From a virus, in IMG/VR virus record IMGVR_UViG_3300028045_000006, positions 1-36,708 of that record: a DNA stretch of 36,708 nt. One strand, given 5' to 3'. The position numbers were made by a program, and so were the translations under genes. Shown in pieces: positions 1-36,708 of this stretch. A model generated the notes under the pieces. The model had not been told where the DNA came from and ran no database searches. It saw only the letters and a list, made by a program, of their open reading frames with translations. Numbering within the stretch: the stretch's first letter is position 1; each line of letters opens with the position of its first letter.

Positions 1-127
1 AATGGAAACACAAGAATTAAAACAATCAATAGAAGAAATGCGTCAAGAGGTCGTGATTAGTGATGTAACGGATAGGATTAGAATAATGTGTCTTGATGCT
101 TTGGATAGTGCGGATGAGTGTTTGGAT
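1..127. repeat. Terminal direct repeat, copy A (identical to 36582..36708); circular-contig overlap
   Basis: Aligned by eye base by base: aatggaaacacaagaatt...gagtgtttggat occurs at both ends, exactly 127 nt. Confidence 0.95.
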
Positions 128-618: not shown

Positions 619-970
619 CATAATAGCAAAGAACGAATGGTCTAGTTTGGTTAGAGCTAAGGCAGGTGATGTTTGTGAAATATGTGGGAGAACAGGTAAG
701 TTAGACGCACATCACATCTTCAGAAAACAATCGAACTACATGAAGACACTCCTATCAAATGGCATCGCTCTTTGTTTTAACTGTCATCGTAACGGAATAC
801 ATTCTCCTGATTGGAAAGATCAACGAATAATGAGCGACAAAATACAAGCCTATAAAGGCGAAGAAGAAATGGAACGTCTAAACAGACTAAAACACAATCC
901 TCCTAAGCTTACTTTAGACGAACTTAAAGAAATCAGGAAAGACTACGCTCAAATGTTAAATGAGTATTGA
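581..970 (+). CDS. HNH endonuclease (start ambiguous: 581, 590, 596 or 611)
   Basis: CEICG...DAHHI...NGIALCFNCHRNGIHS is an HNH or His-Me finger motif with two Cys pairs. Confidence 0.75.
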   Translation: MSCMKMSPSRMANIIAKNEWSSLVRAKAGDVCEICGRTGKLDAHHIFRKQSNYMKTLLSNGIALCFNCHRNGIHSPDWKDQRIMSDKIQAYKGEEEMERLNRLKHNPPKLTLDELKEIRKDYAQMLNEY

Positions 971-1001: not shown

Positions 1002-1238
1002 ATGAAGGATTGCAAGACAACAATTAGAATGTCTAAGGATGAGAAGGAACTTGGTGAGAGGTTGGCCAAAAGGCACAATGTTTCTTTTTCACAGTACGTT
1101 AGAAATTTGACAATGATTGACCGAATGGAGGAAGAGAGTGCAGAACGTATGAGGCTACTTGACGCAATGCCAGAGAAGGAGAGGATGAAGTATTTGAAGG
1201 AGTGTAAGTACGACCCTTTCCCAGATTTATCTATTTAA
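1002..1238 (+). CDS. Ribbon-helix-helix (CopG/Arc/MetJ-like) DNA-binding protein
   Basis: The N-terminal TIRMSKDEKELGERLAKRHNVSFSQYVRNL matches the RHH strand-helix-helix pattern. Confidence 0.5.
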   Translation: MKDCKTTIRMSKDEKELGERLAKRHNVSFSQYVRNLTMIDRMEEESAERMRLLDAMPEKERMKYLKECKYDPFPDLSI

Positions 1239-2327: not shown

Positions 2328-3164
2328 TTATTTTGTTAAGTATTTGCTGTAGTTATGTAAAATTTGCACCATTTCTGAGCGTGTAACAGCTTTTTCGGGT
2401 AAAAACGACCCATCACCGTACCCATGGACTATTTCGTTGTCTTTTGCCCATTGTATTGCTTCTGCGAATGGACTTTCTTCAGTTACATCTTTGAAGATAT
2501 ATTTTATGTCTTTGTGGTCGTATAAGACATAGCAAGAGCCAAGCCATTTAACATCTTCATTCTTTACTAAAAATGTACCGTCATCAAACTTTCCCCAGGT
2601 ACTTCCCCAAGAATTAGATACAATCTTATAAAAAGGTTTATACCCAGTTATACATACAGCGTGTCCTCCAACTCTATCTCCATCATTGCCTCCCCAAATA
2701 CCTTCGTGTTTAGCCTTCTTGAAGTTGGTTTTGGTAACATCCATCGAGGTTACTATTGCAAAGCCCTTAGAGAGCCAGTAATTGACCTCGCTTTTTGGTA
2801 TACGAGCGTACCCGTCTATTTTATAGATTCCATCCGAAGTATGTAGTCCGTTCTTTACAATTGATTTAAGTGCAGTTTGAACGTAGTCTCCCTCTTTTAC
2901 CCTTGTGCCAAACTTCCCTTGCAACTCCCATCCTTTGTCGAATAAAGGATCAAGTTCTTTGTTGTGTTCTGCTTCGTTTGCAACTTGAGCTGAATGGTAT
3001 GCAGAGAAACAGGTACACATTGAAGATTTACCTTGATCTCCTTCCGTTAGTTCTAGCCTTACGCTTTCTGGCAAAGGAGCGTCGTCCTTGCCTAAAATCT
3101 GTTCAGCTATGTAATCACGAGAATCTGGGGCATCTAAAGCCCCAACAGGTCTTTCGTCATTCAT
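2328..3164 (-). CDS. Putative endolysin: papain-like (C1) cysteine peptidase with a C-terminal SLH domain
   Basis: C1 signatures: QGKSSMCTCFSAYH (Cys), GGHAVCITGY (His), SNSWGSTWG (Asn/Trp). The C-terminal FKDVTEESPFAEAIQWAKDNEIVHGYGDGSFLPEKAVTRSEMVQIL matches the SLH consensus F.DV...A..I.W....I..GY.DG.F.P....TR.E. Confidence 0.7.
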   Translation of the reverse strand: MNDERPVGALDAPDSRDYIAEQILGKDDAPLPESVRLELTEGDQGKSSMCTCFSAYHSAQVANEAEHNKELDPLFDKGWELQGKFGTRVKEGDYVQTALKSIVKNGLHTSDGIYKIDGYARIPKSEVNYWLSKGFAIVTSMDVTKTNFKKAKHEGIWGGNDGDRVGGHAVCITGYKPFYKIVSNSWGSTWGKFDDGTFLVKNEDVKWLGSCYVLYDHKDIKYIFKDVTEESPFAEAIQWAKDNEIVHGYGDGSFLPEKAVTRSEMVQILHNYSKYLTK

Positions 3165-3180
3165 ACGAATTGATTAAGAA

Positions 3181-3411
3181 TTATTTCTTAGCTTTCTTTT
3201 TCTTAGGCTTCTTTTCTTCCTTGACCTTGTTTGCAGCTTTAATCTTAGCTGCTAGTTTAGATTGGTCAACCGTCTCCTCTTCCTTGAGAGACGTCTTCTC
3301 GAAAGAAACTGCTCCTTCAATCTTTTCGTGCAATTCAGGATTGAATCGGAAATCTTTTATACAAAGTTCCTTTCCAGTTTCCTTGCACTTTACTGTTAGT
3401 GGTTTCCACAT
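3181..3411 (-). CDS. Hypothetical protein with a poly-Lys tail (76 aa)
   Basis: ORF track; C-terminal KVKEEKKPKKKKAKK; leader taaccaatacact. Confidence 0.5.
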   Translation of the reverse strand: MWKPLTVKCKETGKELCIKDFRFNPELHEKIEGAVSFEKTSLKEEETVDQSKLAAKIKAANKVKEEKKPKKKKAKK

Positions 3412-3560
3412 AGTGTATTGGTTAATTGACTTATTAAGTTATATGTGTTAAGGTTTGAGTATGAGTTGTATCCTACCAATTATTTACATCTTGTTTATTA
3501 TCTTCGCTTTTTCCATTCATTGGGCGTTGGGCTTAATACTTATCGCTCTTTTGTTTGTTC

Positions 3561-5192
3561 CTAATCAGAATTAAGATCACTTTCTGTTAATCCTTGAAGC
3601 ATCAGGTAATCTCCAAATGTTTTTACTGGCTTGGCTGAATAAAATTCTAGGGCATTGCCAACTCTGTACAACGTTCTTCCTCCTATTGTTTTAATGGGCG
3701 TAGTTGCCATATCCCAAGCGCCAGACCAGAATGTTCCAAATCCTCCTTTGAATCTTCCTCCAGTTCTAGCCTTTACGCCTATTCCTTCTAATTGCTTAAG
3801 ATTAGCATAATCTCTATATTGAGCCTTTATGTTTGGATCTTTCAAAACTTCATAAATATCATTTCTTATCTCGTTAGCGAATTTATTTTTTACTTGTCTC
3901 CATCCACTTACTACATCTTTGCCTTTGAATATTTTCTGTGGTGTAAATTTATCTAATGAACTTTTTATACTTTGTGCATCTATGTAGGAAGCCGACGGGG
4001 TGTCTTTGTAATCTTCTTTTAAAACCTCTAATCCTTCTAGTAAATCAGCTCTTCTGGCAGGTTCTTTTTCTTTCATTATTTCCTTTTCTATCTTTTTGAA
4101 TTTAGAGGTGAAATCCATAGGTTTTTCTACAGACTTAAGTTCTGGTTCTATTTCCTTCTTCCATATTTCATTAGCCTGTTTCGCACTTTTAACGCCTATC
4201 CCTTTTTCTGTTCCGACTATGCCTTTTTTTAATGCCGATTCAGACGCGATATTAGGTTTTTCTTTAAGTATTCCAGCCTCATATTTTTGCATTAACTCAG
4301 CCTCTTTAGTACTAGGCTTGATTGCTGTCTCGTATAATTTCTCTCCAGCAGCTTTGATGCCTTGACCAACTGGTTCTACAACTGTTTCGGCAGCTTTTTT
4401 GCCTTTTTTTAATCCTAATCCCATAAGTCCAACGTCAACAGGAGCCATCCATTGAGCCTTGATGTCTTCATATTCTGGTGTGCCTTCAACGATACCAGCC
4501 TTTTCCAATCCATAATCAACTATATGACTATAAATTTCTCTAGGAACTGTTAATGGCAACCCGACCGTCCAAGCAGCAATCTCATTCCCGTAAGGCAAGT
4601 TGCTCAAAGTTCCACTAATCGGACTTAGAAGAGTTCCTATTGTTCCTTCTGCTATTTTCGACCAACCTGTGCCACTCTGCATAATCCCTTCTTCCGCATT
4701 TTCGTTTGTAGTTCCTTGATAAATGTCCTTAACGCCACTTCCTATAGTAGAAAGACCTTGTTTCGCTTGCCCAATAATATCTGGGCTTTCCTGGCTCATC
4801 ATCGTCTTTGCATCAGCTTCTGACAATCCTTTCGTTTCCATGATAAAATCAATCATCTGTTGTTTCTCTGGACTTGGTTTGGTCAGCGACTCTTGCGTAA
4901 TATCCATTACGGATTTCGTTACTTCTGGAGTGACTCCTGTTTGTGGAACATTTTGGATAGATTCCACTTGCGCTTGTTTTTCTTTCGCTGCATCTATTCC
5001 TGGTTGAAGCATTGGCATCAAAGAACTTGTGAAAGGAGCCTGCTCTTGCATATACGCCTTCTTGGTTTGTACCAAAGCAGCTTTAGCGTCTTCAAAGCTA
5101 GTTCCTTCAGCCTGCTTTGCCATCATAAAGTTATAATCTGACATGGACATATCGGCTGGTTTTTGCGGTTTTGTTTGTGTTGTAGGTATCAT
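3561..5192 (-). CDS. Large virion-associated protein (543 aa), possible internal or ejection protein
   Basis: Position next to the 917-aa CHAP protein at the distal end of the structural module. No diagnostic motif seen. Confidence 0.35.
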   Translation of the reverse strand: MIPTTQTKPQKPADMSMSDYNFMMAKQAEGTSFEDAKAALVQTKKAYMQEQAPFTSSLMPMLQPGIDAAKEKQAQVESIQNVPQTGVTPEVTKSVMDITQESLTKPSPEKQQMIDFIMETKGLSEADAKTMMSQESPDIIGQAKQGLSTIGSGVKDIYQGTTNENAEEGIMQSGTGWSKIAEGTIGTLLSPISGTLSNLPYGNEIAAWTVGLPLTVPREIYSHIVDYGLEKAGIVEGTPEYEDIKAQWMAPVDVGLMGLGLKKGKKAAETVVEPVGQGIKAAGEKLYETAIKPSTKEAELMQKYEAGILKEKPNIASESALKKGIVGTEKGIGVKSAKQANEIWKKEIEPELKSVEKPMDFTSKFKKIEKEIMKEKEPARRADLLEGLEVLKEDYKDTPSASYIDAQSIKSSLDKFTPQKIFKGKDVVSGWRQVKNKFANEIRNDIYEVLKDPNIKAQYRDYANLKQLEGIGVKARTGGRFKGGFGTFWSGAWDMATTPIKTIGGRTLYRVGNALEFYSAKPVKTFGDYLMLQGLTESDLNSD

Positions 5193-5202
5193 TATATTTT
5201 GG

Positions 5203-7956
5203 TTACCATTTAATTGAATCTATACTATCTGGAACATATTTACTGTCTTCCACCGACTTGTTGTAAAGGTCGAGGTCTGCTTGTTGTTGTTTTTCTTCGG
5301 GTGTCATAGGCACGTTCTCTTTAATTATTGAATCTGGGTCAATTCCTGCGTCTATTAAGGCTTGTTTCTTTTCTGGATCAATAATAGTTTGAGCATATTC
5401 CTTCCCCATTGTAGACTTGTAAGAATACCTGGCTGCCGTAATCTTAGAGGACAGGAATTCAGACGCTGTATTCAATATTCCTTCAAATTGTTGTTCTGAA
5501 AACTGTAATCCGAGTAGTCTCTTCTGATTCTCTATTTCAGATTCAGAAGGAGCAGCTCCAGTCCCTTTCCATACGGCTGCTATTTCGGTTGCAAGTTGTT
5601 CTAATCCGAATTGGAGATTAACAATCTCTGTATTACCACTTTCCGCACTCCACCAGTTGGACAGTTTATTCAGTTCTTGTATGTCGTCAGGAGTTAAATT
5701 TTGGGTCATCTTTTTAACGTCTGCCAAATGCCCCAAAGCAGTGTTGATAGATAACTTGTTTTTACCGACAGAACTCTCAGTTGAATCCCATTTCTTTCTA
5801 AACTCATACCTAATCTTGTTTGTGTTTTCACTAAAATCAGGATCGACACTCTGTGCTTGCTGTAGTATTTTCTGCCTAGCCTTAGAACCTTCCATTCCTC
5901 TACTTGCCATTAAGTCTGCTAACAGTACGTCACCGTTCAGTAGTTGTTTTATATTGCTTTGGTCGTCAGAGGACAAAGCCGAAAATGCCCCTTGTTCCTT
6001 TGGGGTTAAACCTTCCCAGAAATCTGGGTAAGCTTCTTCTGGGTTAGTGCCACCACTAGGTCTGCCGAACTTCATACCGTCTGTTGACATATCGTGTGTG
6101 CCTATTTTCCCAGATTCAACATAATTAGCATCTTTAACCGTAACCGTACCCCCATCATCACTAACTGAAACAACGAATCCTGCATGACCAACATTGTCTC
6201 CATAAGGTGAAACGAATATGTCTCCAGCCTGTGGGCTGTCTACTGAAATAGACTGTATTGCGTTTATTTTAGAGTCGTAATCATCACCCATCGTTAATCC
6301 AGTATACCTATTCACGAACTGCGCACATTGTATACTTCCAGTCTTACCATTCCATGAGTCTATAGCTGGTTCTCCTGTTGTTGGATCTATTGGCGTTCCA
6401 TCTGGAACAGACAATGCGTCATTTACAGTTCCCCACGCCCCCTGAAAGCCACCACCTTCGCCTTCAGGCGTATACACAACTTTTGGTGGAGTTTTCCCAG
6501 TAGGATCAGTTTGCAACCACCTACCATCGTCCATCTCCTGATATTGGAAATTAGGATTGGCCCTCTTGAGTTCTTTGAATTTCTCTTGGTCAGTATCAGA
6601 TAATGCGCTGTAGAACTCCCATTCTTGTACTTGAGAAGGCTTACCAATATATTTAATGTCCTCTCTTAACTTCTCCGCTTGTGCTAGTTTGTAATCACGT
6701 TCAGCTTCATCCTTGGTTGCTAAGGCTTCAGCCTCCAACTTAATAGCTGATTGCAATGCTAAAGCTTCAGGCATGCTTAAATTTGTGTTCTGAATCATGT
6801 TGCTTAAATCTGCCTCTGTAAGGTTGACTATTGATGCTCCCATAGCTTCCATGTTGGCAACTGTTGTTTCTGTTACCGTATTAACAGTCTCAGCCATCTT
6901 CATTGATTGCTCTGCAAATGCTGTTTCGGCATCTATTTGATCAATTGCTGCTTGTTGGATTTGTCCGTCTGCTTGAGCTATAGCTGCTTTGTATTTAGCA
7001 GCAGAGTCCCAGTCTTCCATCTCCTGCGCACGTTTCAAACTCTTTATTGCTTGGTTTCTTTGTCCTTCAGCTTTTTGTCGTTGTAATTTTATGATTCCTA
7101 ACTTCCTGTCTACGTTCTTTTTGAATACACTTATTACGCCCTTAGCTCCTCCTTTAATTTCTCCTGTTTCTGGATCCATAACGCCTTCACTCACAACACC
7201 TTCTCTTCCTGGAGACAATGCTGCTGTTACAGAAGCTACACTTGACTCTAGAGATTCACCTGCTTGTGATGCTTGTTCTGATTCTAATTTACCAGCCAAT
7301 TCGTTTTGTTTCTCCAAATAAGATAATTCTCCTGCCTGTTTATCTTGTAAATAACCTTGAAAATATTCTTCTAAAGTAGAAAAAGGAGCATCTCCGAATC
7401 CTAGGTCTTCAAATTGAGTAGCCGTTCCAGCCGTATCACCACTTGCCGTAGCTTTCACATAATCATCATAATTTTTATAAGGATACCACGGATTGTCTTC
7501 TGTTCCTGAACCTAGTCCAACTACATTCCCTTGATCATCATAAGCGAATCCTGCTTGTCCTTGGTAAGGAGTGTCTTTAACAGGAAGTCCTTGATCACCA
7601 GCTAACTCTTTTCCTTTAGGAGAATCTGGACTATAGAGCTTACCTGTAGACGGATCTTTTATTTGCCATCCTCCTCCTGGTTTCTCTTGAAAGACTCCAG
7701 TACCTTGTGATTGTGGTTGATCAGGAGCTACCTCGGGAACCTCTGGCGTGGCTTGTTGACTCTTCCACTCTTGGACTCCTTTGGCGTAATCCTTAGAACT
7801 ACCATAGTCAGTTTTCTTTGGTGGTGTTACAGCAGGCTTCACGCTTTCTGTGTCAATTTTGATTGGTTCCACCTTCGGAATGTCTTTTTTTTGAGCAGCT
7901 AAAGCGGCCTTGTATTCAGCCCTAGATTTAAACTGATCTCTGTATAGTTTTGCCAT
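5203..7956 (-). CDS. Large virion protein (917 aa) with an internal CHAP peptidoglycan-hydrolase domain
   Basis: The spacing of SIQCAQFVNRY (Cys codon 6325..6327) and NVGHAGFVVSV (His codon 6184..6186) is typical of CHAP. Long coiled or low-complexity flanks resemble ejection proteins. Confidence 0.6.
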   Translation of the reverse strand: MAKLYRDQFKSRAEYKAALAAQKKDIPKVEPIKIDTESVKPAVTPPKKTDYGSSKDYAKGVQEWKSQQATPEVPEVAPDQPQSQGTGVFQEKPGGGWQIKDPSTGKLYSPDSPKGKELAGDQGLPVKDTPYQGQAGFAYDDQGNVVGLGSGTEDNPWYPYKNYDDYVKATASGDTAGTATQFEDLGFGDAPFSTLEEYFQGYLQDKQAGELSYLEKQNELAGKLESEQASQAGESLESSVASVTAALSPGREGVVSEGVMDPETGEIKGGAKGVISVFKKNVDRKLGIIKLQRQKAEGQRNQAIKSLKRAQEMEDWDSAAKYKAAIAQADGQIQQAAIDQIDAETAFAEQSMKMAETVNTVTETTVANMEAMGASIVNLTEADLSNMIQNTNLSMPEALALQSAIKLEAEALATKDEAERDYKLAQAEKLREDIKYIGKPSQVQEWEFYSALSDTDQEKFKELKRANPNFQYQEMDDGRWLQTDPTGKTPPKVVYTPEGEGGGFQGAWGTVNDALSVPDGTPIDPTTGEPAIDSWNGKTGSIQCAQFVNRYTGLTMGDDYDSKINAIQSISVDSPQAGDIFVSPYGDNVGHAGFVVSVSDDGGTVTVKDANYVESGKIGTHDMSTDGMKFGRPSGGTNPEEAYPDFWEGLTPKEQGAFSALSSDDQSNIKQLLNGDVLLADLMASRGMEGSKARQKILQQAQSVDPDFSENTNKIRYEFRKKWDSTESSVGKNKLSINTALGHLADVKKMTQNLTPDDIQELNKLSNWWSAESGNTEIVNLQFGLEQLATEIAAVWKGTGAAPSESEIENQKRLLGLQFSEQQFEGILNTASEFLSSKITAARYSYKSTMGKEYAQTIIDPEKKQALIDAGIDPDSIIKENVPMTPEEKQQQADLDLYNKSVEDSKYVPDSIDSIKW

Positions 7957-11599: not shown

Positions 11600-12250
11600 T
11601 TAATATATTAGTGTTGAATCTGGTAAACTGTAAGCCATTGGCTCCTTTTTGAAATTCCTTGCTAGTTCGTCCATAATCCTCACAAACCTAGCGTCTGCGA
11701 AACTCTCTGCTCCTATGTCTTCATCCCATTGGTCATACAAAACGTCTACAGCCTTAACAATATACTCTAAGAAGTCGTCTGGGATGATTTCTGCACCACT
11801 CACGCTCGTATCTAGTGTAAAATAGTCCGTAGAGGCGTCTATCGTCGTTATTTCAGGAATATACCGTAGTCGGTACGTTTCTGAGCTTTCAATGCCTGTA
11901 AAGACGACATTTGTGCCTTGTATGTAATACCCTTTGCCTTTTGAGCCGAAAGGAAGTCTTGCCAATCTAACTTCGGTATTATCTCCTTCTGTATCTACAT
12001 AATAGAAACCACATTCTTTTTCTTCTATGTCTCTGAAGTCTGCTGGTAAAGCTTGTGTACTAGGATTAGTACTTACTGAATAAGTTGTATCCTGATCAAT
12101 GTACCTTTCTGGATCAATTCCTTTTAACTTCCTGTAGGCAGTCTTGTTGATGAAGTCTGTCCATTCCCAAAAAGTTGCTAAAGGAACGTCTGTAAGGTCA
12201 CGTTTTAGACGATTATATGCGTCGTATGCTGATTGTGCGGTGATTGCCAT
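11600..12250 (-). CDS. Virion protein (216 aa), adaptor or tubular-protein-A-like by position
   Basis: Gene order and size only. Confidence 0.3.
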   Translation of the reverse strand: MAITAQSAYDAYNRLKRDLTDVPLATFWEWTDFINKTAYRKLKGIDPERYIDQDTTYSVSTNPSTQALPADFRDIEEKECGFYYVDTEGDNTEVRLARLPFGSKGKGYYIQGTNVVFTGIESSETYRLRYIPEITTIDASTDYFTLDTSVSGAEIIPDDFLEYIVKAVDVLYDQWDEDIGAESFADARFVRIMDELARNFKKEPMAYSLPDSTLIY

Positions 12251-19985: not shown

Positions 19986-21152
19986 TTATTGTACGTTGTG
20001 TGTGATGTTCACAAGTCTGTAAGCGTCTCTGAAGAATACCGCATCACCGAATAGAACGTGAGTTAGGTAGTTCTTAGCGAGCTGTTTAGGTTCTTCACGG
20101 ATGTACAGTTCAGGCATCATTTGGATTGCCAAAGAGATTGCTCCTTGTCTTCCAGTTAGCATTGTCCCTGTTTCTGTAGCGAATACATTTGTGCCAGTTG
20201 TGAATGTCTCAGCTGGAGCCATCTTTCCGTAACAAGTCAAAGTACAGTCGTGTGTAGACCATGCACCTGCAGTAAGCTGTGCATTCTGATACTTACGTCG
20301 TCCTTCTGCGGCTAAATCGATATAATCGTTAGCTGAAGGTGGAGTCGTTCCGTTAATAGCTGTTAAGAAAATTGCCTTGAAGTCAGCCAAACCGTCACCG
20401 ATATTGATTTCACCTGCTGCCGCAGCAGTACCATCAGTTACACATGTCCAAGTTTCACCCAGAAGCGTGAATGTATCTGTGTTGCTAGGTTGTGTGTCAA
20501 CTGTCAACACTACACTTGTTGGTAGGTTGTTTGAAACATAACAGTTGAATCCAGCAGCTTTACCACGGAATTGGTTTCTTAGTTGTGTGTCTGCTTCTTG
20601 GAATCCGTTAGCTACGAATGTCTCTGTTAGGAGTGTAGCTGTGTGAGCATCGATTACAGCGAACAAAGGCGCATCAGTTGCGTTTTGTCTGTAAAGTTCT
20701 GCGTAAGATTCATTAAGTCTAGAAAGGACTGTTGAGGTAGTCAAAGAACCACCTGCAACCGTGTTGTTAGCACCTGCTACACCTGTAGCGAATACTGTTT
20801 GGTCGATGTTGTTTCTTAGTTGGAATGCTGATTGGTAAGCCAATTCTGCACCGTAGTCAGCCAAAGCTTGTTTCTCTTGTACTGGATCAAGGATGAAGTT
20901 AGCAATTTTAGATTGATCAACAGTCAAAGAACTCTGTACTGCTGAAAGATCGTCCATTGTAACGTCTGTACCTTGCGTGTAGTCTTGTACACGAACATCA
21001 CTTACATACGGAAAGTTTACTTGGTCTCCACTTGAAAGGTATGCTTCACATTTAGTGTTACATATCTCTTTCGCTACAAGCATCTTGTTCAGATAATCTT
21101 GTACCATAGGTTTCCATACCTCTGGATTTAAAGCTGTAATAGCGTTTGCCAT
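19986..21152 (-). CDS. Major capsid protein (HK97 fold, P22-coat-like family)
   Basis: 388 aa. The N-terminal A.T.LNPEVWKP.V..YL......A..I.N......SGD.V.FPY...V.V.DY pattern is typical of this capsid family. It follows the scaffold gene. Confidence 0.75.
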   Translation of the reverse strand: MANAITALNPEVWKPMVQDYLNKMLVAKEICNTKCEAYLSSGDQVNFPYVSDVRVQDYTQGTDVTMDDLSAVQSSLTVDQSKIANFILDPVQEKQALADYGAELAYQSAFQLRNNIDQTVFATGVAGANNTVAGGSLTTSTVLSRLNESYAELYRQNATDAPLFAVIDAHTATLLTETFVANGFQEADTQLRNQFRGKAAGFNCYVSNNLPTSVVLTVDTQPSNTDTFTLLGETWTCVTDGTAAAAGEINIGDGLADFKAIFLTAINGTTPPSANDYIDLAAEGRRKYQNAQLTAGAWSTHDCTLTCYGKMAPAETFTTGTNVFATETGTMLTGRQGAISLAIQMMPELYIREEPKQLAKNYLTHVLFGDAVFFRDAYRLVNITHNVQ

Positions 21153-24483: not shown

Positions 24484-25785
24484 CTATTTCTTAAGGATTA
24501 AGTCTTTAGCTGCTTTAGCGTATTCTTTGTATTCTTTGGCTGGAATTCCTATCTCGTGCTTTCTTATACCTGCTTCGTGGTCAGCAAAACCCATAGCTTT
24601 GTTCTCATAGTCACTGAACGGTGTTGAGTCTTTGACAGAGATTGTAGTCAATGCGTACCTAACTGCATCCATTGCATGATCGAAGCCTGGTTCTGGTACA
24701 TTTAACACCTTCCCATTCTTGTCTGTTAGCCACAAGTAGTTCCTATACTCTTTAATCACGTTAATTGACCTCTTAGTCATGAATATCCTTTGGTCTTGTA
24801 CTAACTGTATTCCTTGATTAACTGAGTCTCTACCTTTCTTACATCCGATTATGTTAGCTCCATAGGCTCTTATCTCATCAATAGACTTAGGCTCTGCTGA
24901 GTCAGCTACTGTTAGAGTGTTGTTCTCGTCGATCAATAGAATGTCAGCTATCTGCTTATTACTCAATCCTTTCCTAAATGTTATCTCGTCTATGATGTAA
25001 GCTCCGTTCCACTTGTAGATGTCTACTATAGATGTTGGGTCGTTACTGTATCCGAAATCCATACCTTTCCTAATCAACTTAGCTTCATCTGGTATCTTAT
25101 CAAGTATCTTCCAATCCTTATATATCTTACCTTCTACCTCACCCAGCATTCCTAGTCCATACACTTGCCACCATCCTTTCCTGTTCCTACGCTGTTCAAT
25201 TGATTCCACAATCTTCTCGTCTAATGCTTCGTTGTCCTTATAAGTAAGCGTACATTCTTCTACATCATCTCTATCATCTCTAACATCAGAGTAATACCAA
25301 AACTCATTAGTCGGATTCCAATCTAAGTACACAAACTCCTTAGTCCTTACCTCAAGCTGCTCAAATGCGTCAAAAGGCACGTTGTTAGCCTCGTTGATGA
25401 ACAAACGATCTCTACGTGCTCCTCTGAGCTTATCGGGGCTGTCAGCTGAAAAGAATTCGATTCTACTTCCTGTCTCAAATGTGTACGTGTGATTGGTCTT
25501 GTCCCATAGTTTGTCTTTGTAATAGCCTTGCTTCTGCATTATGTTTAAGAAATCTCTCTCAGCTCCTCTACGGAGATGTGGGAAAGACTCTGATACAACA
25601 CTTGTTAAAGTTATAGCCTTATCACTCTGTGCTCTAGCTATTAAATAAATAAGAATAGAGATTGTTTTAGAAGCTGAAGTACCACCAGGCACTGCTCTAA
25701 TCCTTTGCTCCATCTTCATTATCTTGTCCGTCGCTGTTGTTATTACAAACATGAGGTAGTATTGGTGATGGTAACTTCTCTCCAT
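24484..25785 (-). CDS. terL: Terminase large subunit (Terminase_3 / PBSX-like); true start probably at internal Met 25752, 25719 or 25713
   Basis: Walker A VPGGTSASKT and Walker B DRLFINEA. Nuclease motifs GMDFGYSNDPTSIV, DSAEPKSIDEIR and HAMDAVRYAL. Confidence 0.9.
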   Translation of the reverse strand: MERSYHHQYYLMFVITTATDKIMKMEQRIRAVPGGTSASKTISILIYLIARAQSDKAITLTSVVSESFPHLRRGAERDFLNIMQKQGYYKDKLWDKTNHTYTFETGSRIEFFSADSPDKLRGARRDRLFINEANNVPFDAFEQLEVRTKEFVYLDWNPTNEFWYYSDVRDDRDDVEECTLTYKDNEALDEKIVESIEQRRNRKGWWQVYGLGMLGEVEGKIYKDWKILDKIPDEAKLIRKGMDFGYSNDPTSIVDIYKWNGAYIIDEITFRKGLSNKQIADILLIDENNTLTVADSAEPKSIDEIRAYGANIIGCKKGRDSVNQGIQLVQDQRIFMTKRSINVIKEYRNYLWLTDKNGKVLNVPEPGFDHAMDAVRYALTTISVKDSTPFSDYENKAMGFADHEAGIRKHEIGIPAKEYKEYAKAAKDLILKK

Positions 25786-27398: not shown

Positions 27399-27596
27399 TT
27401 ATTTTTTAGTAAATATGTTTTTGATCTTTTGTATTAGTCCTGGCTTTGGCTCTAAAGGATTCCAATAAGGATTCTGTTTCATAAACTCTCTTATAGCCAC
27501 TCCTCTGTATTGAGGGAATTCCTTTATAAACTCTTTAATTCTTTGCTGTGGACTATTCTTCCTTAGCATTAGCTTTAGAATTGTCTTTGGATTCAT
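27399..27596 (-). CDS. Hypothetical protein (65 aa)
   Basis: ORF track. Confidence 0.5.
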   Translation of the reverse strand: MNPKTILKLMLRKNSPQQRIKEFIKEFPQYRGVAIREFMKQNPYWNPLEPKPGLIQKIKNIFTKK

Positions 27597-27843
27597 TTAA
27601 ATCAGTTAATTGTTCTTCTATTTCTAAACACTGCAGTACAAGACTGTCTACTGGTTCTCTCGCTCCACACTCCCTACACACTAAGTCTATTATCCACTCA
27701 GTTTGCCCTGGGTCTATGATTTGATTGTCCCTTGAGAACTTAGACTGGTCTTTGTTCTTACACTCATCACAATAGTGAGTGATCTCTTTATTTCTTACCT
27801 TTAGGCGTATCCTTCTCCCCTTCGCCTTCTTTGATTGGATCAT
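27553..27843 (-). CDS. Zinc-ribbon protein (96 aa)
   Basis: Two CxxC pairs: CDEC...CREC. Confidence 0.5.
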   Translation of the reverse strand: MIQSKKAKGRRIRLKVRNKEITHYCDECKNKDQSKFSRDNQIIDPGQTEWIIDLVCRECGAREPVDSLVLQCLEIEEQLTDLNESKDNSKANAKEE

Positions 27844-28426: not shown

Positions 28427-28447
28427 TTTAGTTTAGTTAGAGCTGTC

Positions 28448-28484
28448 GTGGTGAAGTTTCCCTCACCACTTCAACTTTCCCTCA
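28448..28484 (-). promoter_or_regulatory. Leader element of the leftward arm: two mutually exclusive hairpins and a TTTCCCTCA direct repeat
   Basis: GTGGTGA (28448..28454) pairs with TCACCAC (28463..28469). TGAAGT (28452..28457) pairs with ACTTCA (28468..28473). TTTCCCTCA occurs at 28457..28465 and 28476..28484. Confidence 0.35.
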
Positions 28485-28614
28485 TCCTATGAAAACTTAA
28501 ATCGTAATGATAAAAGCAAAACCATTATTACACACTTTAACCAAGAAATCAATAGAACTTGGGAACAGAAAGCCACCTGTCAACATTAGTTAGTAATTAA
28601 GTATTGAATAAGTA

Positions 28615-28643
28615 TTGACACTATATAGCACATTTGCTATACT
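28615..28643 (+). promoter_or_regulatory. Candidate early rightward promoter TTGACA-N17-TATACT
   Basis: Consensus -35 at 28615..28620, 17-nt spacer, TATACT at 28638..28643. The first rightward ATG is at 28674. The -35 overlaps a tandem AAGTATTGA repeat (28599..28607 and 28610..28618, 11-bp period). Confidence 0.6.
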
Positions 28644-28673
28644 AAGTGTGTAGTATTCATTAACCCTCAAAAT

Positions 28674-28838
28674 ATGAAAACCTACGATCCTGCTGAAGTT
28701 CTAATGACACACTTCGGCTACAGTAAGGAAGAGCTTGAACTTCTAATTGTTTCAGGCAAAAGTCTTGGTGAAGAGATTGACGAGTGTCAGTCTTGGGACG
28801 AAGCGTGTATAGAAAAGGAACTAACCCTATGCTCATGA
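28674..28838 (+). CDS. Small ORF (54 aa), first rightward gene
   Basis: Hand translation: MKTYDPAEVLMTHFGYSKEELELLIVSGKSLGEEIDECQSWDEACIEKELTLCS. ATGA overlap with the next ORF. Confidence 0.5.
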   Translation: MKTYDPAEVLMTHFGYSKEELELLIVSGKSLGEEIDECQSWDEACIEKELTLCS

Positions 28839-28903: not shown

Positions 28904-28997
28904 AGATTCTTTAATTCTCCAAGTCCTCCTAATGTCTGCTGTTATATTCGTAGGAGGATTCGTAGCTGTTATATTTCTATTAACCTTCCCACTATGA
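28896..28997 (+). CDS. Micro-ORF (33 aa), single hydrophobic helix
   Basis: MLKDSLILQVLLMSAVIFVGGFVAVIFLLTFPL; ATGA overlap with the next ORF. Confidence 0.35.
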   Translation: MLKDSLILQVLLMSAVIFVGGFVAVIFLLTFPL

Positions 28998-29125
28998 ACA
29001 GAGAACAACTACAACTACTTAAAAAAATTGCTGAAAAAGCCAAGAAACTAGAAGAAGCCTGTGAAGATAACGCTGAAGCTTTGAGAGAAACTAGAAACGC
29101 ATTAGAATCCTTAAAACACTTATAA
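28994..29125 (+). CDS. Small helical ORF (43 aa)
   Basis: MNREQLQLLKKIAEKAKKLEEACEDNAEALRETRNALESLKHL. Confidence 0.4.
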   Translation: MNREQLQLLKKIAEKAKKLEEACEDNAEALRETRNALESLKHL

Positions 29126-29127: not shown

Positions 29128-29403
29128 ATGACAACCCCAATAGAGCTATTAAAGGAATCCATAGAAATTACAAAAAAAGCCAACAAGTTTGAAGAGAGTT
29201 TGGTTGACTCTGGAAACTTACATTCCATTCGGGAACTTGACCTTTCCGACAGGACCGACTGGCTTCTAAGTAGTCTTAATATTTGTAGCGTGGAGAAATT
29301 GTTGTTAATGAAAGATTATGAATTGGCGAACCTGCCAGGAATAGGAAGGAAGACCCTTGAAGAGATTGAAAGCGCCCTTCATCACCACAAATTATTTAAC
29401 TAA
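29128..29403 (+). CDS. RNA polymerase alpha-subunit C-terminal-domain (alpha-CTD)-like helix-hairpin-helix protein
   Basis: SIRELDLSDRTDWLLSSLNICSVEKLLLMKDYELANLPGIGRKTLEEIESAL follows the alpha-CTD pattern I.EL.LS.R..N.L....I.....L.....EL....N.G.KSL.EI...L. Confidence 0.6.
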   Translation: MTTPIELLKESIEITKKANKFEESLVDSGNLHSIRELDLSDRTDWLLSSLNICSVEKLLLMKDYELANLPGIGRKTLEEIESALHHHKLFN

Positions 29404-29409: not shown

Positions 29410-29619
29410 ATGAAAAGACGACACGCTAGATTCCTATATGCCTTGATGGACAAGATCTATGTCTCTAAGGTTGAAGGTAAGAACGACTTAGGAATGAAAA
29501 GACCTATTGCCGCCCACAAGATCAGACTCAAAGATATTAAAGAGATAGAGAAAGAACTTTGGGAACATATTAAAGACGACTTGCCTTTTTCAGACTTAGA
29601 TGATACATTAGACGCGTAA
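29410..29619 (+). CDS. Hypothetical protein (69 aa)
   Basis: ORF track. Confidence 0.5.
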   Translation: MKRRHARFLYALMDKIYVSKVEGKNDLGMKRPIAAHKIRLKDIKEIEKELWEHIKDDLPFSDLDDTLDA

Positions 29620-29648
29620 TTTATATACCTTCAACCACCTTACTACCT

Positions 29649-29804
29649 ATGTCTAAAACAACAAAAGAACAAATCATGGCCGCAGTTGTGAACGACTATT
29701 TCAACGACCTCGAGTTTATTGAGGCATTGAATAATTTAACCTACGGTAGAAAGGTTCAGTTGAAAGCTAACCTTAAAACCAACTATGAACCAAGGATGGA
29801 TTAA
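29649..29804 (+). CDS. Small ORF (51 aa)
   Basis: Hand translation: MSKTTKEQIMAAVVNDYFNDLEFIEALNNLTYGRKVQLKANLKTNYEPRMD. It fills the gap before the replication gene. Confidence 0.4.
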   Translation: MSKTTKEQIMAAVVNDYFNDLEFIEALNNLTYGRKVQLKANLKTNYEPRMD

Positions 29805-30531
29805 ACTACATAGGAAGATTACCGAATGGGAGTGGTACACAGAAACCAACACCTTCGCTGTTTTTATGCACCTTATCCTTACTTGTAACTTCAAACCAAC
29901 GAAGTGGAGAGGCATTGAATTACAGCCAGGTGAAACCGTTAAAGCCATAACAACGCTAGCTGAAGAAACTAACTTGTCAGTGCAAACGATTCGCACAGCG
30001 ATTAAAAGGCTAAAATCAACACGGGAACTAACACAAAGACAACACGGAAAACACCGCATCCTTAAGCTAAAAAGCTACGATGCCTATCAACTTGCTAACA
30101 CGGACTCTAACAATGAACTAACATCGAAACAACATCGTTTTAACATCGAATCAACACTAGATAAAGAATGTAAAGAAAGAAAGAATGAAAAGAATGAAAA
30201 GAAATACACGTCGGATTCTGACGAATACCGACTAGCTGCATTACTAATAGGAAAAATAATAGAGAATAATCCAACACACAAATTTACTTCCTTATCAGAA
30301 AAAGACCTAGAAACCCAAACACATAAATATTCCGCGGAGGTTGACAGAATGATAAGATTAGATTCTCGCACTCCAGGTCAGATAGAGTTTCTAATAGATT
30401 GGTGTCAGCAGGACGACTTCTGGCAAGGCAATATACTGTCTATGAAGAAGCTTAGACAAAAGTTTGATACCTTGGTAGCACAATGTAAGCGTAAGGCAGG
30501 AGGTGGGAACACAACAGCAATTATTTCTTAA
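29785..30531 (+). CDS. Replisome organiser / replication initiator (N-terminal wHTH, DnaD-like C-terminal domain)
   Basis: The N-terminal WIKLHRKITEWEWY...LAEETNLSVQTIRTAIKRL is typical of phage replisome organisers. The C-terminal IEFLIDWCQQDDFWQGNILSMKKLRQKFDTL is typical of the DnaD/phage C-terminal domain. Confidence 0.65.
   Translation: MNQGWIKLHRKITEWEWYTETNTFAVFMHLILTCNFKPTKWRGIELQPGETVKAITTLAEETNLSVQTIRTAIKRLKSTRELTQRQHGKHRILKLKSYDAYQLANTDSNNELTSKQHRFNIESTLDKECKERKNEKNEKKYTSDSDEYRLAALLIGKIIENNPTHKFTSLSEKDLETQTHKYSAEVDRMIRLDSRTPGQIEFLIDWCQQDDFWQGNILSMKKLRQKFDTLVAQCKRKAGGGNTTAIIS
30120..30205. repeat. Candidate replication origin: in-phase AACATCG iterons plus an A-rich tract inside the organiser gene
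   Basis: AACATCG at 30120, 30131 and 30142, with degenerate AACACT at 30153 (exact 11-bp period). It is followed by ataaagaatgtaaagaaagaaagaatgaaaagaatgaaaagaaa, which includes a tandem AAGAATGAA x2 at 30181..30198. Confidence 0.5.
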
Positions 30532-31724: not shown

Positions 31725-31931
31725 ATGAAATACTACCAGCTCGATACGGACAAGCTAATGGCAGAGGAGAGCCTAGACTCAAGCGCAATTGTTTCCTGCT
31801 TTAAACAGCTGTACAATTCGGTTAGAGCAATTTTCTATTTAATCAAAGTTATGCAAATAGAAATTGACGAAGGGCGTTATGACAGGATTTCAGAAGATGG
31901 CAAAAAGTTTTTTAAAGAATCACATAAATAA
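31725..31931 (+). CDS. Hypothetical protein (68 aa)
   Basis: ORF track. Confidence 0.5.
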   Translation: MKYYQLDTDKLMAEESLDSSAIVSCFKQLYNSVRAIFYLIKVMQIEIDEGRYDRISEDGKKFFKESHK

Positions 31932-31932
31932 C

Positions 31933-32637
31933 ATGAAACACCTAAAAGAAATTAAAAACTACATATACGATTCTCAAACAACTTTCTTTGGAGAAGGAAA
32001 CGTGGTTGGGTTTGGTGACGACAGTTTCTATCTAAAGGAACTGGACAAAAATGAAGCAAATAGAATCATTAGAGAAAATCACTATTCTAAAAAGATCTAC
32101 AACGGAAGTTATATACATCTTGGGGTTTGGATGAACGGGGACCTAGTAGGGGCGTTACAGTATGGGTACGCAATGAATCCAGCCAGCCAAAACGGTGTTG
32201 TGTCCGACACCAAAATTGATGAATACCTTGAGCTAAACAGGATGTGGTTAGACGACATAGCCCCAAAGAACAGCGAAAGCAAGGCTATTAGTTATAGTAT
32301 AAAATATATAAAACGGAAATATCCAAAAATAAAATGGATTCAGAGTTTCGCAGACGAAAGGTGTGAGTGTTTTGGCGTGGTATATCAAGCGTGTAGCTTT
32401 GATTACTACGGAGAACACACAAGTAGCTTCTGGGAATTAGATGGTGAAACATTCCACAACTCAATAAAAACAAGCGAGAAAGCAGGACCGAGGGGGTATA
32501 AACTACTGAACGATCCTAAAAACAAAGACAGGGTTATAAAACACAAATTAAGACAATTCCGATACATAAAGTTTTTAGACAGAAGGTGTAGAAAGAAATG
32601 CCTACTAAAAAAACAACAATATCCCAAACGGAGCTAA
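31933..32637 (+). CDS. Mom-like GNAT-fold protein (candidate DNA base-modification enzyme), 234 aa from ATG 31933
   Basis: EANRIIRENHYSKK...HLGVWMNGDLVGALQYG...ELNRMW...WIQSFADERCECFGVVYQACSFDYYGE...FRYIKFL...YPK parallels the conserved blocks I recall for the Mom family (HHY.., G....L.GV..FG, ELNRL, SYAD...GH.G.IYQA.N..Y.G, HRY.YFL). Confidence 0.55.
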   Translation: MKHLKEIKNYIYDSQTTFFGEGNVVGFGDDSFYLKELDKNEANRIIRENHYSKKIYNGSYIHLGVWMNGDLVGALQYGYAMNPASQNGVVSDTKIDEYLELNRMWLDDIAPKNSESKAISYSIKYIKRKYPKIKWIQSFADERCECFGVVYQACSFDYYGEHTSSFWELDGETFHNSIKTSEKAGPRGYKLLNDPKNKDRVIKHKLRQFRYIKFLDRRCRKKCLLKKQQYPKRS

Positions 32638-32870: not shown

Positions 32871-33041
32871 ATGGAAGACCTGTTTGAAGACTTTCTCAAA
32901 GACAAACACGCCAAAGACTATCACGGAACAGATGATGACATGTATGAAGATTTTGAAGCGTGGCTTATGAACTTAGACGTTCAGGAGCTACTAGACTACG
33001 GAAACGAACTTGCAAAGAAATTAACTAACCCAACTAAGTAA
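32871..33041 (+). CDS. Small acidic ORF (56 aa)
   Basis: Hand translation: MEDLFEDFLKDKHAKDYHGTDDDMYEDFEAWLMNLDVQELLDYGNELAKKLTNPTK. TAATG overlap with erf. Confidence 0.45.
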   Translation: MEDLFEDFLKDKHAKDYHGTDDDMYEDFEAWLMNLDVQELLDYGNELAKKLTNPTK

Positions 33042-33532
33042 TGCAAAAATTATTCAACCTACAGAACAAACTAAAAGCAGTTAAGAAAGACGCTGAGAAT
33101 CCTTTCTTCAAGTCAAAGTATTTCGACATAAACGGATTACTCTCGGCTCTTAAGCCACTCTTGAACGAAGAAGGACTTGTAGTGATCCAACCACTAACTA
33201 CTTTAGAAGGAGGTGTAAATGCTCTTAAAACGGTCGTTATAGACGCTGAAACAGGAAAAGCATTGGTTGAGTCGGTTGTAGCACTTCCGAGCAACGTAGA
33301 CCCACAGAAGATGGGATCAGCTATTACTTACTTCCGAAGGTATGCCTTGCAATCACTATTCCTACTAGAAGCTGAAGATGATGACGCAAACTCAGTGTCA
33401 GGCAAGCAACCACCAGAAGCTAAGAATTACAATCATGGAGGAACAGGCAAGTGCGAGAGTTGTGGAGCGAATATGAAGATGAGTGCAGCAGGTAAAATTT
33501 ACTGTTCAGCCCTATGCTGGAAGAAAGACTAA
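33041..33532 (+). CDS. erf: ERF-family single-strand annealing recombinase with a C-terminal zinc ribbon
   Basis: NPFFKSKYFDINGLLSALKP and MGSAITYFRRYALQSLF are the ERF hallmark blocks. The C-terminus carries CESCG...CSALC. Confidence 0.75.
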   Translation: MQKLFNLQNKLKAVKKDAENPFFKSKYFDINGLLSALKPLLNEEGLVVIQPLTTLEGGVNALKTVVIDAETGKALVESVVALPSNVDPQKMGSAITYFRRYALQSLFLLEAEDDDANSVSGKQPPEAKNYNHGGTGKCESCGANMKMSAAGKIYCSALCWKKD

Positions 33533-34412: not shown

Positions 34413-35153
34413 ATGAAATATCTAAGAAAAGAACTCGCAATCGTAATGATTGGCGCAATAGTCGGGATGTTCCTATACATCACGTTTGAACCAGTTTCAA
34501 AAGCAGACGCACTGCAAGCAATCTACAACACAACCCTGGAAGAATTTAACTATGTGAACGGAATCTACAAAGAAAAGGAAGCTGAGATACAAACATACGA
34601 AGCTCGCTTAGAATCACTCAAAAATGAGCTAGAATCGCTGTCTAAACTACTTGCAAACTTAAAAGCAGACGTAGACGCAGAAAAAGACGAACTCTTTTCT
34701 AAGGGCGAAATAACGCCAAAAACAACAGAGCTTGAAAGGTGGCAGTATGTAGCTGATTTAAGAGAACCTTTGGCTAAGTATTGGAAAGGTACTGTTTTGG
34801 AAGGAAAGGAAGACGATCTTCTGTTGTGGTGCAAAGCTAGTACAGTTGCCAGAGTTTGCGTGAAGGTTATTGCAGCTCAGACGCAGATTGAAACTTCGTT
34901 TGGCACTACTGGAGTTGGTAAGACGCACAAGAATCTAACTGGTATCAGAGATTCAGGAAAGTGGAGAACTTACGAACAGTATCATTACAGCTTAAAGGAT
35001 AGTGTTGAACTGTTTATAGCTGGAAACTATCAAGATTACTTCACAATACATGGTTGGGAAAAAGGGCTTAGGTTATATTTAAACAGATGGGGGACACTAC
35101 ATGTAATTGATATAAAACATATATGCGAAAATGTATTAACAAAACAACCATGA
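34413..35153 (+). CDS. Signal-anchored coiled-coil protein with a C-terminal GH73-like (glucosaminidase/FlgJ-type) domain
   Basis: N-terminal TM segment LAIVMIGAIVGMFLYITF. IAAQTQIETSFGTTG...KNLTGIRD...WRTYEQYHYSLKDSVELF parallels the GH73 blocks AQA.lESgwG, nNlFGik and f..Y.s...S..dy. The candidate catalytic Glu codon is at 34890..34892. Confidence 0.55.
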   Translation: MKYLRKELAIVMIGAIVGMFLYITFEPVSKADALQAIYNTTLEEFNYVNGIYKEKEAEIQTYEARLESLKNELESLSKLLANLKADVDAEKDELFSKGEITPKTTELERWQYVADLREPLAKYWKGTVLEGKEDDLLLWCKASTVARVCVKVIAAQTQIETSFGTTGVGKTHKNLTGIRDSGKWRTYEQYHYSLKDSVELFIAGNYQDYFTIHGWEKGLRLYLNRWGTLHVIDIKHICENVLTKQP

Positions 35154-35509
35154 GAGAATTAAAATTCAAAACTTGGGACAGAAAAGAAAAAGAAATGTAC
35201 CCAGCAGAAAGATTGGCTGACTGGACGCTGATAATAGAAGAAGAAAGGTACGACATCCTTCAATTCACAGGTCTACTAGATAAAAACGGCAAGGAAATAT
35301 ATGAAGGCGATGTAGTGAAAACTGTAATCAGAACCATCGATGGGCATGACCACAAGGAAAGCGGAGAGGTGAAGTGGAATTATAACGACCTGGCGTACGA
35401 CATAGTGAGGTCTAGAGAAAAAGGTGATTTCCAACACCTGTTCAAGTCATCAGGCCGCACTGTTGAAGTCATAGGTAACATATACGAGAATCCTGACCTG
35501 CTTAAATGA
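35150..35509 (+). CDS. YopX-family protein
   Basis: MRELKFKTWD...LQFTGLLDKNGKEIYEGDVV...VIGNIYENPDLL is the classic YopX pattern. ATGA overlap with the upstream gene. Confidence 0.75.
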   Translation: MRELKFKTWDRKEKEMYPAERLADWTLIIEEERYDILQFTGLLDKNGKEIYEGDVVKTVIRTIDGHDHKESGEVKWNYNDLAYDIVRSREKGDFQHLFKSSGRTVEVIGNIYENPDLLK

Positions 35510-36394: not shown

Positions 36395-36583
36395 ATGAAA
36401 ACAGAAAAAACAGGTTACGAAGTAAAACTAATAGTGTCGCTTATATTTAATTGTAAAAGCCTACAGGAGGCTGAAGGAGAACAAGAGAATCTTAAAAATG
36501 CACTCAAGAACCAACTTGACGAGCATTACCCATTTAGAGTTGAGAAAGTGGAAGTCCAACCACCCGAACTTAATCAAGAATAA
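36395..36583 (+). CDS. Hypothetical protein (62 aa)
   Basis: ORF track; TAATG overlap with the junction-spanning ORF. Confidence 0.5.
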   Translation: MKTEKTGYEVKLIVSLIFNCKSLQEAEGEQENLKNALKNQLDEHYPFRVEKVEVQPPELNQE

Positions 36584-36708
36584 TGGAAACACAAGAATTA
36601 AAACAATCAATAGAAGAAATGCGTCAAGAGGTCGTGATTAGTGATGTAACGGATAGGATTAGAATAATGTGTCTTGATGCTTTGGATAGTGCGGATGAGT
36701 GTTTGGAT
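36582..36708. repeat. Terminal direct repeat, copy B (identical to 1..127)
   Basis: Same 127-nt string as 1..127. It contains the 5' part of the ORF annotated at 2..205. Confidence 0.95.

Follow-up and report, generated by a model that had tools for sequence, protein, structure and literature searches.

Why would a phage carry a gene for the C-terminal domain (CTD) of the alpha subunit from RNA polymerase (RNAP) as a protein of its own? The window, that is, the whole stretch of 36,708 nucleotides analysed here, holds such a gene (Table 1). Its product, of 91 aa and 10.4 kDa, consists of an N-terminal extension of ~30 residues followed by one alpha-CTD-type domain. The same product was independently predicted by the gene callers of the JGI, ENA and Logan assemblies, and it stands unchanged on 12 public contigs that derive from several samples of marine origin, among them Saanich Inlet at a depth of 200 m. 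The neighbours of the gene were conserved, together with the gene order, in contigs L001-L006. In the strain variants L002-L007 the operon was nearly identical, with one synonymous change in the alpha-CTD gene, a variation that is uninformative on selection; the variant contigs, picked by exact protein identity, moreover form a biased set.

The window has a G+C content of 40% and carries a 127-bp terminal direct repeat, which identifies it as a complete, circularly assembled genome of ~36.6 kb. As read from its sequence, it is the complete genome of a podovirus-like tailed phage. Its genes form two divergent arms, with the largest non-coding gap between them. On the leftward arm, small ORFs come before the packaging and structural genes; on the rightward arm, to which the alpha-CTD gene belongs, they come before the genes for replication, recombination and DNA modification. 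Inside the gap, a candidate rightward promoter precedes the first rightward ORF by 31 nt and the alpha-CTD gene by 485 nt. It is the sole 11/12 sigma70-type match in the 36.7-kb genome, although the total number of matches was not above that of shuffled sequences and it should be read as a consensus match only. Counting downstream from this candidate promoter, the alpha-CTD gene comes third or fourth among the ORFs, and a position in an early operon can reasonably be inferred for it. Shine-Dalgarno (SD) motifs were nearly absent, and for this reason a Bacteroidota-type promoter motif (TTTG...TAnnTTTG) was also sought; none was found in the control region. As to a possible frameshift fusion of orf43 with the alpha-CTD gene, the two frames differ by -1 and overlap across 31 nt, but this overlap is devoid of a canonical slippery heptamer.

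Table 1. Positions of the predicted genes, domains and sites in the window
Feature	Position	Strand	Remarks
NinG/HNH nuclease	581..970	+	
SU10-type adaptor	11600..12250	-	
Major head protein	19986..21152	-	
Large terminase	24484..25785	-	
Tail proteins			CHAP, lectin and CBM domains
Largest non-coding gap	28427..28673		
Candidate rightward promoter	28615..28643	+	TTGACA-17-TATACT, extended -10 TG; sigma70-type consensus match
orf54	28674..28838	+	small ORF upstream of the alpha-CTD gene, no family; predicted in several assemblies
orf43	28994..29125	+	charged helical peptide, no family; predicted in several assemblies; stop 2 nt before the start of the alpha-CTD gene
Alpha-CTD-domain protein gene	29128..29403	+	ATG start, TAA stop (stop included), 91 aa
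N-terminal extension, residues 1-30	29128..29217	+	predicted helical, acidic, pI 4.7, no family match
Alpha-CTD-type (HhH)2 domain, residues 31-88	29218..29391	+	pLDDT >90, Foldseek, Pfam and PDB sequence matches
Helix-1 DNA-contact segment D41-R42-T43-D44-W45	29248..29262	+	equivalent to E. coli V264-R265-S266-A267-N268
Second helix-hairpin-helix hairpin L69-P70-G71-I72-G73-R74-K75-T76	29332..29355	+	equivalent to E. coli T292...S299
Downstream genes orf69, orf51 and DnaD-like loader	29410..30531	+	same arm as the alpha-CTD gene
DnaD-like helicase loader/replication initiator	29785..30531	+	PHROG 2514, E=2.3e-48
Mom-like protein	31864..32637	+	
Erf	33041..33532	+	
YopX-like protein	35123..35509	+	

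Pfam and PHROGs scans of all ORFs of at least 77 aa, and of several smaller ones, recognised no RNAP, sigma factor or integrase, in agreement with the original prediction, which had seen neither an RNAP nor a sigma factor. The further claim, that host RNAP has to be reprogrammed by the phage in some way, carries little weight: many small phages get by with the RNAP of the host, for them having no RNAP or sigma factor of their own is the normal state, and a near-consensus sigma70-type promoter is present here.

Residues 32-85 of the protein matched positions 13-66 of the 67 positions of the Pfam profile PF03118 (RNA_pol_A_CTD) with 38.0 bits (E=1.3e-9), 14 bits over the gathering cut-off of 23.8 bits, which makes the protein a member of this family. 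When the PDB was searched with phmmer, the top match was the T. thermophilus alpha-CTD 1doq (E=3.5e-5), and almost all other matches were RpoA as well. The NCBIfam rpoA models paired residues 12-89 with their last ~80 positions, at scores below the equivalog cut-offs (35.1 vs 227.8 bits for TIGR02027 and 37.9 vs 277 for NF003519). AlphaFold run on the single sequence gave a poor model (pLDDT 64.5), which was superseded by an MSA-based model. For the latter, the query was aligned with 44 alpha-CTD-like domain segments (alignment A1), and pLDDT was >90 across residues 31-88. Foldseek comparison with the PDB returned RpoA alpha-CTDs for all 50 of the 50 best matches; against target chains that are isolated CTDs, the rmsd was 0.9-1.5 A over 50-59 residues and the target-normalised TM score was 0.65-0.89. 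Likewise, the A1 profile matched RpoA CTDs in the PDB at 1e-26 to 1e-17, while Hel308, ComEA, ligase, Hef and XPF came out at 5e-6 at best. Altogether, the profile and model comparisons indicate that residues 31-88 are a true alpha-CTD-type domain, not a generic helix-hairpin-helix (HhH), and they bear out the original prediction of a free-standing alpha-CTD homologue. The motif string given in that prediction matched the sequence, except that it has one spacer position too many from R42 to I52, an immaterial difference.

The alpha N-terminal domain (NTD) had been said to be missing, and indeed the Pfam scan of the 91-aa protein gave no match to any NTD family. Lacking an alpha-NTD, the protein is unable to assemble into RNAP as an alpha subunit. 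One source (JGI) labels it 'DNA-directed RNA polymerase alpha subunit'; as the protein cannot be an RNAP subunit, this label is misleading. In place of the NTD it carries the N-terminal extension, residues 4-28 of which form a helix in the single-sequence AlphaFold model, whereas residues 1-30 have a pLDDT of 53-57 in the MSA-based model. This helix may serve oligomerisation or partner binding, the former being a guess because the helix is modelled at low confidence.

Relatives of the protein turned out to be distant. A word-indexed search for close homologues returned only the 91-aa protein itself, PHROGs contained no significant family for it, and an IMG/VR pattern scan and tblastn search gave no relative. 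When 1.84 billion representatives were searched exhaustively with HMMER, 111 proteins, the query among them, passed E<=0.001, a count that says nothing on stand-alone homologues since single-domain relatives (~25-35 bits) fall below significance among so many sequences. The matches other than the query measured 166-1402 aa and held 2-9 alpha-CTD-like stretches, with the exception of P0099 (222 aa, one domain, 35 bits). None of the 111 carried an alpha-NTD, no true RpoA was found at E<=0.001, and the nearest homologue reached ~35 bits, with nothing closer. Per domain, the similarity was ~27 bits to Thermus RpoA versus 27-35 bits to non-RpoA paralogues. Because no true RpoA occurs among the significant matches, the gene is evidently not a recent capture of the 3' end of a sampled host's rpoA, and any capture would have to be ancient. 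A GTDB scan gave one match, in Herbivorax sp. (L091), which was rejected: the word ELLKESIE had matched by chance within a 425-aa ORF of the radical-SAM KamA-like type.

With the alpha-CTDs of RpoA from T. thermophilus (1DOQ), E. coli (1LB2/3K4G) and B. subtilis (1Z3E), the protein shares the Pfam family and the fold, at ~1 A rmsd over 55-59 residues. Its identity to the Thermus CTD is ~44% over 52 residues and that to the E. coli CTD 25%. Unlike RpoA, it has no alpha-NTD or linker tether and has its own N-terminal helix of ~30 residues. The closest domain sequences outside the cluster of the query belong to cellular non-RpoA proteins (such as P0057, P0085, P0109, P0081 and P0035), which either are tandem arrays of 2-9 domains or have a sigma70 region-4 domain fused to a pair of alpha-CTD-like domains. 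A pre-domain motif, F-x-E-E-x-L...H-S-I-x-E-L-x-L-S-x-R, is common to the query and these nearest relatives, and the motif-sharing domains most like the query sit in the proteins of the second kind. The cellular relatives are multi-domain proteins of 170-1400 aa that are not known to be viral, whereas the query has a single domain. Alpha-CTD-like domains are evidently abundant in cellular proteins outside RNAP. On the viral side, none of 80 loci with a related DnaD-like gene had an alpha-CTD-like ORF nearby within the stored flanks, and the alpha-CTD gene is to all appearances a lineage-specific addition within a wider phage group.

Counterparts exist in other phages. Foldseek against BFVD retrieved small proteins that bear the name 'RNA polymerase, alpha subunit, C-terminal': several of 105-139 aa from uncultured Caudovirales, one of 240 aa from Rhodococcus phage Finch and one of 149 aa from Mycobacterium phage Mithril. 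GenBank phages were searched with a consensus alpha-CTD query, and unannotated fragment records were regarded as host rpoA contamination. Further examples were gp5 of Bacillus phage vB_BmeM-Goe8 (210 aa, 'RNA polymerase subunit alpha', encoded in the terminal early region), the 141-aa 'DNA binding protein' of the Mazun group of Microbacterium phages (Mazun gp26), gp9 of Roseobacter phage CRP-701 (197 aa, located between two PD-(D/E)XK nucleases and adjoining SSB and primase/helicase), gp23 of Ruegeria phage V16 and ORF34 of Morganella phage Mecenats66, in which the domain is fused to DUF2591. When the 91-aa protein itself was used in tblastn against GenBank phages, only weak matches (E>=0.08) appeared in unannotated fragments and were discarded, as they resemble host rpoA contamination. 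A single PF03118 domain was detected by Pfam in all three proteins tested: at the C-terminal end of Goe8 gp5 and Mazun gp26, and at residues 89-147 of the 197 of CRP-701 gp9, the N-terminus of which is coiled-coil-like. Like the query, the annotated phage proteins are small, have one PF03118 domain and no alpha-NTD, and are encoded among early, replication or recombination genes. However, they share 24-28% identity with it in the domain only, their N-terminal parts are unrelated, and the full-length relatedness of one orthologous family was not found. They also keep R-x-x-N on helix 1, where the query has R-T-D-W, and the query is the shortest of them. The 91-aa protein is not unique; it is a new, minimal member of an already catalogued set of phage free-standing alpha-CTD-domain proteins. 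No functional study of any protein of this kind was found in the literature searched.

We then compared the DNA- and partner-contact surfaces by means of an ungapped alignment (offset 223) to the E. coli RpoA sequence, on which the numbering was checked, using the 265, 261 and 287 determinants known from established E. coli alpha-CTD genetics and structures. In the '265 determinant', R265 (R42), G296 (G73) and K298 (K75) were retained, S299 was conservatively replaced (T76), and N294 corresponded to G71, a common alternative. On the other hand, V264 was changed to D41, A267 to D44, N268 to W45 and C269 to L46; thus N268, which in E. coli is important for UP-element binding, and C269 were lost, and so was the uncharged helix-1 face (V264 and A267). 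Among 177 related domains, the R42 column held arginine in 151 and the G73 column glycine in 166 (G73 was invariant in alignments A1 and A2), while lysine occurred at the K75 column in 112 of 176 and serine or threonine at the T76 column in 123 of 175. At position 268 the consensus was asparagine (99 domains); D41 (n=6), D44 (n=3) and W45 (n=4) were rare. The '261 determinant' (D258, D259 and E261) corresponded to R35, E36 and D38, two of the three being acidic, as is the generic consensus (E/D) of the family, non-RpoA domains included; in E. coli, D259 and E261 face sigma region 4. In the '287 determinant', T285, E286, V287, E288 and L289 corresponded to K62, D63, Y64, E65 and L66, and the surface was incomplete, since the protein stops at the equivalent of E. 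coli residue 314 and G315, R317 and L318 are absent. The domain was net acidic, with a pI of 5.7 (5.1 for the E. coli alpha-CTD). By this alignment, the DNA-binding hairpin retains its core, helix 1 is out of the ordinary and more acidic, and the surface for contacts with activators is not retained. The unusual D41, D44 and W45 of helix 1 suggest that the DNA or partner specificity is other than that of a true alpha-CTD.

The reading that we favour, tentatively, is that of a small accessory factor associated with DNA or promoters, an assignment that is quite possible but stays short of probable. In such a mechanism, host sigma70-type RNAP would start at the rightward promoter and transcribe the alpha-CTD gene early, along with the genes for replication and recombination. 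Arg42 (R265) and the G73-R74-K75-T76 hairpin (G296-K298-S299) would sit on the DNA backbone and the minor groove, and an oligomer would probably be held by the N-terminal helix. The bound protein would then tune phage early transcription and/or origin function, occupation of host alpha-CTD sites being one possible consequence. Several observations are consistent with an accessory factor. The domain is of the alpha-CTD type by the Pfam, PDB sequence, model and Foldseek comparisons, the equivalents of the DNA contacts R265, G296, K298 and S299 are retained, and the tandem arrays and sigma70 region-4 fusions of the nearest relatives fit the domain as a portable DNA-binding unit. The counterparts in cultured phages lie in early, replication or recombination modules, with Mazun gp26 annotated as a DNA binding protein and CRP-701 gp9, flanked by nucleases, having its coiled-coil-like N-terminus; the gene itself follows the best sigma70-type match and precedes the DnaD-like loader, the Mom-like protein and Erf; and the exact protein recurs on the 12 contigs with conserved neighbours. 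Against this assignment stand the two acidic residues beside the key arginine, the tryptophan in place of the UP-important asparagine and the net acidic character of the domain. The literature searched contained no evidence of DNA binding for the 91-aa protein or its phage homologues. As no homologue exceeds ~35 bits and none occurs in the 80 related viral loci, conservation cannot map the functional surface.

An alternative that we consider somewhat unlikely is a decoy or competitor, as proposed in the original prediction, in which the free domain would titrate factors that dock on the alpha-CTD (activators, sigma region 4 or NusA-type partners) or compete for UP elements, with the effect that UP- or activator-dependent host promoters would be shut down or RNAP redirected. 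The ~1 A agreement with the alpha-CTD fold, the acidic E36 and D38 at the D259 and E261 equivalents, the early gene position and the lack of a recognisable phage RNAP or sigma factor all speak for it. However, E36 and D38 follow a family-wide consensus that is also present in non-RpoA domains, and they are not specific evidence. The '287 determinant' is incomplete: the equivalents of G315, R317 and L318 are absent, and T285, E286 and V287 are replaced by K, D and Y. The equivalents of N268 and C269 are also changed, and the rare D41, D44 and W45 lie on the DNA-contact surface of helix 1. A host-tracking mimic would moreover be expected to be closer to RpoA (~27 bits) than to non-RpoA paralogues (up to 35 bits). 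Since alpha-CTD-like domains occur widely beyond RNAP, both as tandem arrays and fused to sigma region 4, the fold does not by itself imply RNAP mimicry. A true mimic of the host alpha-CTD in the full sense is unlikely: made early and in excess, it would dock by sigma region 4 and/or on regulators and UP-like DNA, and it would either uncouple RNAP from UP- and activator-dependent host promoters or act as a surrogate 'third alpha-CTD' at phage promoters.

Distinctly unlikely is a role confined to replication or recombination, in which the HhH domain would work with the DnaD-like loader, Erf or nucleases on origin or recombination-intermediate DNA and have no part in transcription. The gene is co-oriented with the DnaD-like loader and lies 380 nt upstream of it, Erf and NinG/HNH belong to the same arm, CRP-701 gp9 has nuclease, SSB and primase/helicase neighbours, and HhH modules are common in replication and repair proteins in general. 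Nevertheless, the profile and fold comparisons place the domain with the alpha-CTD and not with repair-type HhH, the absence of an alpha-CTD-like ORF from all 80 viral DnaD-like loci indicates no conserved linkage, and the neighbours in Goe8, Mazun, V16 and Mecenats66 are not replication genes.

It is very improbable that the gene is a piece of the 3' end of a host rpoA that was captured and is now decaying or without function. The protein does comprise only the C-terminal domain and linker-like residues, and the rpoA models pair it with their C-terminal positions; but the ORF is intact and begins with an ATG of its own, it lies in a tightly packed operon, 12 contigs from different samples carry it unchanged, the core fold residues are conserved with a confident model, and the 1.84 billion representatives yielded neither an RpoA at E<=0.001 nor an alpha-NTD among the 111 matches. 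Finally, a generic DNA-repair HhH (RuvA/XPF/ComEA-like) that only superficially resembles the alpha-CTD, the outcome named in the original prediction as the one that would speak against it, deserves hardly any credence and was rejected by the Pfam, profile and Foldseek comparisons, given that the weak matches to HHH_5 (20.7 bits, cut-off 27), HHH (17.6 bits, cut-off 24), HHH_8, IMS_HHH and RecR_HhH all stayed below their Pfam cut-offs while PF03118 exceeded its own; XPF, too, was matched weakly in the phmmer search of the PDB.

Phages control host RNAP by modifying the alpha-CTD, by binding sigma, beta or beta', or with a polymerase of their own. T4 Alt and ModA, for instance, ADP-ribosylate R265 of host alpha. 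In phiKMV, Rac is a phage factor that acts on host alpha by mediating its cleavage (PMC7552054). The presumed target process, the control of alpha-CTD-dependent host transcription soon after infection, would be the same for the 91-aa protein, but Alt/ModA and Rac are alpha-modifying enzymes, whereas the 91-aa protein is a non-enzymatic domain copy. No alpha-CTD decoy mechanism was found described for phages in the literature searched, and supplying the alpha-CTD as a free domain would be a strategy unlike the known controls of RNAP. If the protein did act as a decoy or surrogate, it would add subunit-domain mimicry to the mechanisms of host takeover and would give a function to scattered phage proteins that go by the label 'RNA polymerase alpha subunit' or that of 'DNA binding protein'. 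Whereas the marine phage is uncultured, three counterparts come from cultured phages and are tractable systems for this kind of protein: Goe8 gp5 (Bacillus megaterium), Mazun gp26 (Microbacterium foliorum) and CRP-701 gp9 (Roseobacter).

The alpha-CTD-like domains closest to that of the phage protein were found by HMMER search (1.84 billion representatives, E ≤ 0.001) in seven cellular or metagenomic proteins, each of which combines two PF03118 domains with a Sigma70 region 4 (PF04545). Five of them are about 390-910 aa long (P0057, P0085, P0109, P0081 and P0056) and the other two about 370-440 aa (P0035 and P0077); the remainder of the ~900-aa fusion proteins was without Pfam match. Alpha-CTD and sigma region 4 are the RNAP modules that lie adjacent on UP/-35 DNA and, as judged from the domain assignments, one chain joins both neighbours in these proteins. 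To our knowledge, no function has been described for a fusion of alpha-CTD-like domains with Sigma70 region 4. The query also weakly matched (E=5e-4) an internal segment, profile positions 796-851, of the BREX PglW kinase family (NCBIfam NF033442), a hint that an alpha-CTD-like HhH module is present within PglW. Sequences 59-66% identical to the consensus alpha-CTD were located within unannotated GenBank records labelled as phage (OR848276, OR847224, PQ520304, OR846589, OR849874, OR844994, OR851339 and several MT83xxxx); they are apparently host rpoA, which would make them bacterial DNA among phage entries.

In the phage genome, the ATG of the alpha-CTD gene lies 2 nt after the stop codon of orf43, the small ORF directly upstream, and because of this spacing the two genes are likely to be translationally coupled. 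The alpha-CTD frame runs without a stop codon through the 33 nt that precede its ATG, and no canonical slippery site for an orf43/alpha-CTD fusion was seen. Within the control region, the largest non-coding gap between the two diverging gene arms, an inverted repeat flanks two candidate divergent promoters, with either arm at or beside a -10 element, and a direct repeat is also present. Both could be operator sites; two-copy repeats this long are near chance expectation, with roughly 0.1 inverted pairs expected by our own estimate. Two small proteins, of 78 and 96 aa, are candidates for further regulators of the phage.

Features of the phage genome, with positions in the window except where L002 is named
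Feature	Position	Strand	Description
78-aa protein	1002..1238	+	ribbon-helix-helix type; DUF6290/NikA-like, E=1e-7
278-aa protein	2328..3164	-	papain-like cysteine peptidase and S-layer-homology (SLH) domain
917-aa tail protein	5203..7956	-	CHAP domain
96-aa protein	27553..27843	-	two CxxC pairs; RPB9-type zinc ribbon, weak match at E=0.0065
Direct repeat	28454-28465, 28473-28484		AAsTTTCCCTCA, two copies 19 nt apart
Inverted repeat	28526-28537, 28644-28655		12-nt arms TATTACACACTT / AAGTGTGTAGTA, 11/12 complementary
orf43	28994..29125	+	43-aa peptide, highly charged, probably helical
Mom-like gene	31864..32637	+	DNA modification
Methyltransferase gene	2986..3708 (L002)		N6_N4 DNA methyltransferase
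Terminal direct repeat	1..127, 36582..36708		exact, 127 bp

Regarding the host, a Shine-Dalgarno-like motif preceded the start codon in only 2 of the 54 window ORFs and the upstream sequences were A/T-rich, and translation in the host apparently starts independently of SD. Neither a Bacteroidota-type promoter (TTTG...TAnnTTTG) in the control region nor tRNA genes in the window were found when sought. Since the phage encodes both the SLH-domain peptidase and the CHAP tail protein, its gene content suggests a host envelope bearing SLH-anchoring polymers.

The terminal direct repeat indicates that the assembly is circular or complete, and the ORFs at the window ends therefore continue across the junction. 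The variant contig L002, which carries the identical 91-aa protein, has the methyltransferase gene in place of the Mom-like gene and is ~99% identical to the window elsewhere; DNA-modification cassettes appear to have been exchanged between strains at this position.
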